Sequence record: PV173775
Origin: Escherichia phage GEP001
DNA length: 64,000 nucleotides
Reading direction: 5' to 3' (one strand)
Shown: positions 62,676 through 63,504 of the stretch, piece by piece
Layout: the number at the start of each line of letters is the position of its first letter
How positions within the stretch are numbered: the stretch's first letter is position 1
Translations under genes and position numbers: made by a program
The notes under the pieces: generated by a model
Told to the model about the DNA's origin: nothing
Seen by the model: the letters and a program-made list of their open reading frames with translations, nothing else
Databases searched by the model: none

Positions 62676-62748
62676 TGGGAATTAGCCAAGTTGGTAAGGC
62701 ACTGGATTTTGATTCCAGGATGCAAAGGTTCGAGTCCTTTATTCCCAG
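62676..62748 (+). tRNA. tRNA-Gln (anticodon UUG)
   Basis: Hand-folded: acceptor TGGGAAT/ATTCCCA, anticodon stem CTGGA/TCCAG, loop TTTTGAT; CCA not encoded. Confidence 0.85.
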
Positions 62749-62749
62749 C

Positions 62750-62836
62750 GCGAGAATGGTCAAATTGGTAAAGGCACAGCACTTAAAATGCTGCGGAATG
62801 ATTTCCTTGTGGGTTCGAGTCCCACTTCTCGCACCA
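62750..62836 (+). tRNA. tRNA-Leu (anticodon UAA), long variable arm
   Basis: acceptor GCGAGAA/TTCTCGC, anticodon stem CAGCA/TGCTG, loop CTTAAAA; encoded CCA. Confidence 0.85.
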
Positions 62837-62841
62837 AATTT

Positions 62842-62915
62842 GCGGATATCGTATAATGGTATTACCTCAGACTTCCAATCTGATGATGTGAGTTCGATTC
62901 TCATTATCCGCTCCA
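62842..62915 (+). tRNA. tRNA-Gly (anticodon UCC)
   Basis: acceptor GCGGATA/TATCCGC, anticodon stem TCAGA/TCTGA, loop CTTCCAA; encoded CCA. Confidence 0.85.
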
Positions 62916-62925
62916 ATTTAATTTA

Positions 62926-62999
62926 CTCCGTGTAGCTCAGTTTGGTAGAGCGTCTGCTTTGGGAGCAGAATGTCGTAGGTTCAAATCCTGCTACGGAGA
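62926..62999 (+). tRNA. tRNA-Pro (anticodon UGG)
   Basis: acceptor CTCCGTG/TACGGAG (one G-U), anticodon stem TCTGC/GCAGA, loop TTTGGGA; CCA not encoded. Confidence 0.8.
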
Positions 63000-63001
63000 C
63001 T

Positions 63002-63091
63002 GGAGGCGTGGCAGAGTGGTTTAATGCACCGGTCTTGAAAACCGGCAGTCGCTCCGGCGACTCATAGGTTCAAATCCTATCGCCTCCGCCA
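63002..63091 (+). tRNA. tRNA-Ser (anticodon UGA), long variable arm
   Basis: acceptor GGAGGCG/CGCCTCC, anticodon stem CCGGT/ACCGG, loop CTTGAAA; encoded CCA. Confidence 0.85.
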
Positions 63092-63097
63092 GTTTTT

Positions 63098-63173
63098 GCT
63101 GATTTAGCTCAGTAGGTAGAGCACCTCACTTGTAATGAGGACGTCGGCGGTTCGATTCCGTCAATCAGCACCA
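63098..63173 (+). tRNA. tRNA-Thr (anticodon UGU)
   Basis: acceptor GCTGATT/AATCAGC, anticodon stem CCTCA/TGAGG, loop CTTGTAA; encoded CCA. Confidence 0.85.
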
Positions 63174-63174
63174 A

Positions 63175-63249
63175 GGCCCTGTAGCTGGAAGGTTCAAGCA
63201 AGCGACTCATAATCGCCAGATGGTGGTTCAATTCCACCCAGGGCCACCA
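63175..63249 (+). tRNA. tRNA with CAU anticodon (Met by anticodon; may be lysidine-type Ile reading AUA)
   Basis: acceptor GGCCCTG/CAGGGCC, T-arm GGTGG-TTCAATT-CCACC, anticodon loop CTCATAA; top anticodon-stem pair is A/C. Confidence 0.75.
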
Positions 63250-63258
63250 AATTAATTT

Positions 63259-63345
63259 GGGGAGTTATCCCGTAGAGGTAGCGGTGTGGACTGTAAATTC
63301 ATTGTCATTGCGACTCGGGTGGTTCGACTCCATCACTCCCCACCA
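63259..63345 (+). tRNA. tRNA-like gene, probably tRNA-Tyr (anticodon GUA), long variable arm, non-canonical D-arm
   Basis: 7-bp acceptor GGGGAGT/ACTCCCC + A + CCA, T-arm GGTGG-TTCGACT-CCATC, loop CTGTAAA flanked by GTGGA/TTCAT (two G-U pairs); D-arm does not fold canonically by hand. Confidence 0.55.
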
Positions 63346-63349
63346 ATTT

Positions 63350-63424
63350 GGATGTGTAGCTCAATGGCAGAGCGATCGCCTGTTAAGCGATTGGTTATAG
63401 GTTCGAATCCTATCACGTCCGCCA
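63350..63424 (+). tRNA. tRNA-Asn (anticodon GUU)
   Basis: clean cloverleaf: acceptor GGATGTG/CACGTCC, D-stem GCTC/GAGC, anticodon stem ATCGC/GCGAT, loop CTGTTAA, T-arm ATAGG-TTCGAAT-CCTAT; encoded CCA. Confidence 0.85.
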
Positions 63425-63428
63425 AATC

Positions 63429-63504
63429 CGAGGCATAGCTCAGAAGGAAGAGCAAGGACCTTCTAAGTCCTAGGTCGTAGGTTCGATCCCTACTGCCTCG
63501 ACCA
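63429..63504 (+). tRNA. tRNA-Arg (anticodon UCU)
   Basis: acceptor CGAGGCA/TGCCTCG, D-stem GCTC/GAGC, anticodon stem AGGAC/GTCCT, loop CTTCTAA; encoded CCA. Confidence 0.85.

Follow-up and report, generated by a model that had tools for sequence, protein, structure and literature searches.

The transfer RNA (tRNA) region of the T-even phages is a textbook polymorphic locus, and four of its versions are useful for comparison here. The T4 version (NC_000866) holds eight tRNA genes, none of them for Tyr or Asn, with the homing-endonuclease gene segB between tRNA-Ile and tRNA-Arg and two small stable RNAs, rnaD and rnaC, right after tRNA-Arg. In T6 the order is Gln-Leu-Gly-Thr-CAU-Tyr-segB-Arg, without tRNA-Asn. 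T2 (AP018813) has nine tRNAs, a 402-bp open reading frame (ORF; T2 locus 5711–6112) taking the place of tRNA-Thr, and a ten-gene version from RB3 was deposited about 20 years ago as 'Bacteriophage RB3 tRNA gene cluster' (AJ884578). According to the text of Brok-Volchanskaya et al. 2008 (PMC2330249), T2L, RB1 and RB3 all lack segB and carry the preferred 27-bp SegB site in their tRNA-Asn. Here, we analyse a 64,000-nucleotide (nt) stretch of Escherichia phage GEP001 (PV173775), called the window below, which contains a cluster of ten tRNA genes. The window is very probably a segment of a Tequatrovirus (T4-like) genome, and the cluster an RB3/T2L-type, segB-less allele of the T-even tRNA region that includes a functional tRNA-Tyr of a phage-specific type.

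ARAGORN, run over the whole window, returned ten tRNA genes in total, all contiguous on the + strand between 62676 and 63504, in exactly the order and with the anticodons that an original prediction for this DNA had given (Table 1). That prediction had also put the gaps at 1–9 nt; the spacing is indeed short, with a measured range of 0–10 nt. Nine of the ten genes are backed at 59–74 bits by RF00005, the generic tRNA model of Rfam (gathering score 29 bits), the exception being tRNA-Tyr. Many Tequatrovirus genomes match the region at 97.7–99.4% identity; one of them, Escherichia phage EPIMRB01, is 97.7% identical over 1.5 kb and is annotated with the same ten tRNAs. Coverage of the 829-bp cluster is 80% or more in 397 phage records, and the neighbourhood is that of the reference members, with gene 1, 57A/B, ipI and trna.x upstream and rnaD and rnaC downstream.

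Among the described versions the likeness to RB3 extends to all ten genes, their order and their anticodons (97.8% identity over 829 bp), to the lack of segB, to the presence of rnaD and rnaC after the cluster and to the CAU-anticodon tRNA, which is 100% identical in the two phages. They differ beyond the array, where tRNA-Arg of RB3 is directly followed by rnaD, whereas the window has an ORF of 116 amino acids (aa) in between, like T2. With T2 the window also shares the lack of segB, the right half CAU-Tyr-Asn-Arg and, following the text of PMC2330249 for T2L, the preferred SegB site in tRNA-Asn, as well as the ORFs on both sides (351 bp after tRNA-Arg and 516 bp before tRNA-Gln in AP018813); unlike T2, it retains tRNA-Thr. 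The T4 cluster occupies the corresponding place in the genome, with the ipI / trna.2-4 genes on one flank and the e.8 side on the other, and its Leu, Gly and Ser tRNAs are 100% identical to those of the window (Thr 98.7%); both ends of rnaD and the beginning of rnaC are conserved as well. In T4, however, segB occupies the place of tRNA-Tyr and tRNA-Asn, the CAU (Ile) and Arg tRNAs are other alleles (65% and 70% identity) and both flanking ORFs are missing. T4 thus does not carry the same ten genes, T2 carries nine of the ten and T6 has tRNA-Tyr.

The original prediction had credited T4 with eight tRNAs lacking Tyr and Asn, together with segB and two stable RNAs, and the T4 annotation bears this out; its implication that the arrangement in the window is unusual does not hold, as the array is that of RB3 (AJ884578; PMC2330249) and is found in hundreds of sequenced Tequatrovirus genomes. 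The array is therefore already known, and carries little weight as a discovery. Its use is in annotation, where it marks the window as Tequatrovirus with a segB-less 'recipient' tRNA allele, and the loose end it leaves is the D-arm of the phage tRNA-Tyr family, described below. As to segB, which had been noted as not evident in the region, a tblastn search with T4 SegB gave only a chance match in the whole window (E = 2.9), and the stretch from the CAU tRNA to tRNA-Arg contains no ORF.

In the tRNA-Tyr gene the anticodon GUA lies within a loop of 7 nt and the variable arm is long; discriminator A73, a G1-C72 pair and an encoded CCA are present, and the sequence and the ARAGORN drawing agree on a 7-bp acceptor stem and a 5-bp T-stem with a UUCGA-type loop. 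The earlier description of this gene was accurate on every point: it named a 7-bp acceptor and a T-arm, a loop reading CUGUAAA, an anticodon stem that includes two G-U pairs and a D-arm resisting a canonical fold. Homologs were collected from T6, a Vequintavirus, a T5-like Tequintavirus, a Felixounavirus, a Mooglevirus, a Jiaodavirus, Karamvirus CC31 and Kanagawavirus CIP9, and further from an unclassified Klebsiella phage, an Enterococcus phage and a 110-kb E. coli plasmid resembling a phage-plasmid; across seven phage genera and phage-plasmids the gene is 80–100% identical. Covariation was assessed in an alignment of 10 sequences, against 500 column shuffles and slid controls. Throughout the cloverleaf 99.6% of cells are paired and 14 of the 24 pairs change on both sides, distributed as 6/7 in the acceptor stem, 3/5 in the anticodon stem, 1/3 in the variable arm, 3/5 in the T-stem and 1/4 in the D-stem. 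None of the 500 shuffles attained the observed values, and the slid controls were 44–59% paired.

These figures were obtained with a D-stem that departs from the canonical register. The ARAGORN drawing of the D-stem contains a C x C mismatch, and in the canonical register only 67.5% of cells are paired, the same mismatch recurring in every one of the 10 homologs. A stem shifted by 2 nt, CCGU/GCGG at positions 12-15/23-26, is by contrast 100% paired in 10/10 sequences, includes one compensatory change (C-G to U-A) and leaves a normal AGAGGUA D-loop, and the canonical register was dropped in its favour. From acceptor to D-stem the phage tRNA-Tyr has 4 variable unpaired nt (5 in CC31 and CIP9), against 2 in the canonical fold. 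The D-arm therefore resists canonical folding because its stem sits 2 nt further toward the 3' side, a feature for which we found no description in the papers cited here. The offset may well be functionally neutral, its support consisting of 10 sequences with one compensatory change and full conservation of pairing. That the non-canonical core, meaning the offset D-stem over and above the longer variable arm, is an adaptation that changes recognition by PtuAB (of Septu or retron-Eco7) or by host processing enzymes while keeping recognition by tyrosyl-tRNA synthetase is a speculative idea that we think unlikely.

Several observations weigh against a functional tRNA-Tyr and against the wider reading of the locus. 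The gene lies under the RF00005 gathering score; within Rfam it matches tRNA-Sec best, with 29.9 bits where that family's cut-off is 47; and its minimum free energy fold is a structure other than the cloverleaf, with a stability that does not exceed that of shuffled sequences (z = -0.65). For the rest of the locus, the E. coli K-12 codon frequencies used below (Kazusa table) are approximate, a promoter and terminator scan covering 61700-64000 yielded no signal exceeding that of shuffled sequence, and the records of T2, T6 and RB3 call the CAU tRNA Met. Finally, the T6 tRNA-Tyr has been reported to be relatively unstable and to be itself cleaved by the Septu defence system (PMC13096335).

The failure at the curated RF00005 cut-off, the sub-threshold tRNA-Sec match, the non-cloverleaf fold, the invariant C x C in the canonical D-stem and the instability of the T6 molecule would together suit a pseudogene in decay or what is left of a stable RNA, leaving nine effective tRNAs in the array. 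We regard this as most improbable. Strong compensatory covariation in all four helices other than the D-stem is unexpected for a pseudogene; a D-stem alternative is fully paired in all homologs, and the gene is conserved over seven phage genera and phage-plasmids. The T6 copy, only 1 nt apart, is expressed and phenotypically active (PMC13096335), and a T5-like homolog loses its activity when stems or anticodon are mutated. The Rfam score, moreover, is low in the whole family: phage tRNA-Tyr genes score no higher than 39 bits with RF00005, or have a sub-threshold tRNA-Sec match as their best, and lie 15–25 bits below E. coli tyrU (53.4 bits). Since all phage homologs score low, we ascribe the low score to the family as such and not to decay of the window copy. 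The original prediction had reckoned with covariance models rejecting the Tyr-like gene as a pseudogene or stable-RNA remnant; the generic model does reject it, but covariation and the T6 experiments (PMC13096335) speak against the pseudogene or remnant that such a rejection was to have indicated. A selenocysteine-like tRNA was likewise considered and set aside, the match being 17 bits under the cut-off and weak family-wide, the anticodon GUA and the acceptor and T stems 7 and 5 bp long.

Judged by its covariation and conservation, then, the Tyr gene genuinely belongs to a phage-specific tRNA-Tyr family and has been maintained by selection as a tRNA. Because generic covariance models systematically under-score this family, annotation pipelines may miss its members or mislabel them, as with the tRNA-OTHER entries of some records. 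Others have nevertheless been called: PGAP enters the plasmid homologs as tRNA-Tyr, and the Tyr gene of Sf13 is, according to its record, a tRNAscan-SE call. A tRNA-Tyr 88–93% identical to the window gene is carried by about 270 E. coli plasmids (72–113 kb); in blastn the window gene showed no similarity to any E. coli chromosome, tyrT/U/V included. One such plasmid, from E. coli O104:H4 (NZ_CP022085.2, 109,945 bp), has an Asn-Tyr-Thr-Ser tRNA cluster at 3921-4744 near DNA ligase and integrase genes, a context that suggests a phage-plasmid.

What such a gene may do for the phage is best judged from its nearest relatives. Chihara et al. 2026 (PMC13096335) identified the variable arm of tRNA-Tyr as the cleavage target of Septu and detected expression of the T6 tRNA-Tyr by northern blot. 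T6 was rescued from Septu by overexpression of tRNA-Tyr or by SegB-mediated tandem amplification of the gene, which was found amplified in escape mutants, and became more Septu-sensitive on deletion of its tRNA region; T4, which has no gene for this tRNA, could not escape and T2 was resistant (PMC13096335). As the T6 tRNA-Tyr is itself cut by Septu, the protection works via dosage and not through resistance of the molecule. The window gene matches that of T6 at 86 of 87 nt, including the variable arm with its C48 cleavage site, the one difference being U75 in the T-stem, which is C in T6, so that a G-U pair of the window gene is G-C there. In T6, however, segB follows directly after Tyr, making tandem Tyr-segB amplification possible; with no segB in the window, this route is unavailable in cis.

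A second line of evidence comes from T5-like phages (SP15/T5), whose tRNA-Tyr neutralises the PtuAB of retron-Eco7, an activity that needs the anticodon, the stems and the longer variable loop (PMC11555353, PMC12673091). These tRNAs are 81–84% identical to the window gene and share with it the shifted D-stem and the same variable arm (GUCAUUGCGAC, here from the EC104 gene), but belong to another phage family and another array and have acceptor and anticodon stems altered by compensatory changes. On this model the phage tRNA-Tyr would be a counter-defence, replenishing tyrosine tRNA when the PtuAB nucleases of Septu and retron-Eco7 cleave tRNA-Tyr. The effect has been demonstrated for the T6 gene and for the T5-like homologs, and by analogy the window phage would be expected to tolerate tRNA-Tyr-cleaving defences (Septu, retron-Eco7) better than T4 does. 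A defence-related role may also be envisaged for tRNA-Asn or the remaining tRNAs.

The classical explanation for the T4 tRNAs is codon supplementation, and it could be argued that the array serves codon-usage matching alone, with any anti-defence role irrelevant to the window phage. The codons of the window (36% G+C), counted in 67 long ORFs, fit the classical role. Over-representation extends to all ten sets of cognate codons, each codon being 1.6–5.1 times as common as in E. coli K-12 by the approximate values mentioned above: CAA 1.6x, UUA 2.0x, GGA 3.0x, CCA 1.9x, UCA 2.9x, ACA 2.9x, AUA 3.1x, UAU 2.0x, AAU 2.4x and AGA 5.1x, the original prediction having singled out the AUA, Tyr and Asn codons for comparison with the host. 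AUG is not enriched (0.9x on the same values). The tRNAs would accordingly read codons favoured by an AT-rich phage, to a benefit that we infer from these counts. This bias is equally compatible with counter-defence. Codon matching as the sole function is rather unlikely in our view, even allowing for the cleavage of the T6 tRNA-Tyr by Septu: deleting the tRNA region of T6 raises Septu sensitivity, which Tyr overexpression or amplification relieves, and T2, with Tyr and Asn, is resistant, whereas Tyr-less T4 is sensitive (PMC13096335). Also against it, blastn detects no resemblance of the Tyr gene to chromosomal tyrT/U/V, and the gene shares its distinctive variable arm with the T5-like tRNA that neutralises retron-Eco7.

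The tRNA with a CAU anticodon is most likely tRNA-Ile2, the lysidine-type tRNA that reads AUA, to judge from its identity elements, in keeping with the possibility raised by the original prediction. The list of Ile2 identity elements is well established, and the pairs C4-G69 and C5-G68 are determinants for TilS. Both are present in the window gene, whose acceptor pairs GGCCC/GGGCC are the same as those of E. coli Ile2; the anticodon stem-loop GCGACUCAUAAUCGC is identical to that of E. coli Ile2 and not to that of Met, and C29-G41, U12-A23 and A73 complete an Ile2-type body. Aligned directly, the gene is closer to E. coli tRNA-Ile(CAU), at 80% identity, than to metT, at 60%. In blastn the best E. 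coli match is tRNA-Ile, at 79–82% over the full length, all the matches listed being tRNA-Ile, and the median of two matching places per E. coli genome fits ileX and ileY.

The CAU anticodon itself, the Met call of ARAGORN and three GenBank records (T2, T6 and RB3) would favour instead an elongator tRNA-Met that supplements AUG decoding. We hold this to be very unlikely given the alignment scores, the Ile2 pattern of the acceptor pairs and of the anticodon stem-loop and the uniformly tRNA-Ile matches in E. coli; moreover, AUA is enriched and AUG is not (3.1x vs 0.9x, on the same approximate values), T4 has a tRNA-Ile(CAU) at the same position, and the identical gene is assigned to Ile (ATA) in Bas43. 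An initiator tRNA-Met was rejected because the initiator features are missing: the gene has G1-C72, and its anticodon stem lacks three consecutive G-C pairs. The GenBank labelling of this tRNA is inconsistent. The identical 75-nt gene is entered as tRNA-Met in T2 (AP018813) and RB3 (AJ884578) and as tRNA-Ile (ATA) in Bas43 (MZ501106), while the CAU tRNA of T6 (NC_054907), a T4-type allele, is labelled Met and the same allele in T4 is annotated as tRNA-Ile.

The lack of segB also bears on the fate of the allele. The 27 bp at 63400-63426 (GGTTCGAATCCTATCACGTCCGCCAAA), in the 3' part of tRNA-Asn, differ from the corresponding site in tRNA-Ser (63067-63093) at positions 6, 16, 18, 26 and 27 exactly, and the text of PMC2330249 gives the same five differences for T2L, where the Asn site is the preferred and the Ser site the weaker one. 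The stretch at 63400-63426 is thus the probable preferred SegB site, in a register that we deduced by comparison with the text of that paper. Lacking segB and retaining this site, the window probably carries a SegB-sensitive 'recipient' allele. In T4 x T2L crosses, as the same text reports, the T4 allele takes the place of the segment that holds tRNA-Met(CAU), Tyr, Asn and Arg (PMC2330249). By extension from T2L, the window allele would be cut and converted in mixed infection with a segB+ phage, and its CAU-Tyr-Asn-Arg half would be lost.

As for expression, the array would be transcribed as a polycistronic precursor that host enzymes trim into mature tRNAs. Since the promoter and terminator scan gave no signal above background, we infer transcription from T4; the lone terminator-like hairpin, at 63931-63945, lies within rnaD.

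Table 1. Features of the tRNA region in the window (64,000 nt; positions are those of the window).
Feature	Coordinates	Strand	Basis	Remarks
171-aa ORF	62074..62589	+	phrog_2290 (function-unknown family)	just upstream of tRNA-Gln
tRNA-Gln(UUG)	62676..62749	+	ARAGORN; RF00005 67.4 bits	89% identity to T4; no encoded CCA
tRNA-Leu(UAA)	62750..62836	+	ARAGORN; RF00005 59.3 bits	100% identity to T4
tRNA-Gly(UCC)	62842..62915	+	ARAGORN; RF00005 65.8 bits	100% identity to T4
tRNA-Pro(UGG)	62926..63000	+	ARAGORN; RF00005 66.3 bits	86.5% identity to T4; no encoded CCA
tRNA-Ser(UGA), class II	63002..63091	+	ARAGORN; RF00005 62.6 bits	body 87/87 identical to T4
tRNA-Thr(UGU)	63098..63173	+	ARAGORN; RF00005 73.5 bits	98.7% identity to T4
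CAU-anticodon tRNA (most likely Ile2)	63175..63249	+	ARAGORN 'Met'; RF00005 59.9 bits	65% identity to T4 (different allele)
tRNA-Tyr(GUA), phage-type class II	63259..63345	+	ARAGORN; under RF00005 cut-off	no T4 counterpart
tRNA-Asn(GUU)	63350..63424	+	ARAGORN; RF00005 74.1 bits	discriminator G73; no T4 counterpart
Probable preferred SegB target site, 27 bp	63400..63426	+	GGTTCGAATCCTATCACGTCCGCCAAA	within 3' part of tRNA-Asn
tRNA-Arg(UCU)	63429..63504	+	ARAGORN; RF00005 68.1 bits	70% identity to T4 (different allele)
116-aa ORF	63521..63871	+	phrog_3355 (function-unknown family)	between tRNA-Arg and rnaD
rnaD homolog (small stable RNA, species 2)	63868..63982	+	alignment with T4 rnaD/rnaC and EPIMRB01	
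rnaC homolog (species 1 RNA), first 12 nt	63989..64000	+	alignment	window ends there

The stable RNAs, which the original prediction had found not evident, are in fact present just beyond the coordinates it covered. The rnaD homolog is identical to T4 rnaD over its first ~45 nt and last ~25 nt, with a diverged middle containing insertions and deletions, and the annotation of rnaD in RB3 rests on the same homology of the 5' and 3' ends. The start of rnaC follows 6 nt after it, and the closest relative, EPIMRB01, continues into a near-identical full rnaC. The 116-aa ORF, which overlaps the beginning of the rnaD homolog with its stop codon, is present in T2, EPIMRB01 and Bas43 and not in T4 or RB3. 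The 171-aa ORF upstream has its counterpart in the 516-bp ORF at the same place in T2 and is absent from T4 and T6. A Pfam search with the two flanking ORFs gave no matches.

Close relatives show the array to be modular. Some have a tRNA-His between Asn and Arg (e.g. Bas43, MZ501106, 1040-1115), and in some homing-endonuclease genes are inserted at several points of the array. Near-identical Tequatrovirus or Vequintavirus tRNA regions also occur in records named for other hosts, OR584013 ('Pseudomonas phage PsgM02F') and 'Campylobacter phage C2', and the host labels of these records may be unreliable. The 3' CCA of tRNA-Ser is encoded in the window (CCTCCGCCA, 63086-63093) and not in the otherwise identical T4 gene (CCTCCGTAA, ~4122-4115 of the T4 locus), whereas the Gln and Pro tRNA genes lack an encoded CCA in both the window phage and T4.

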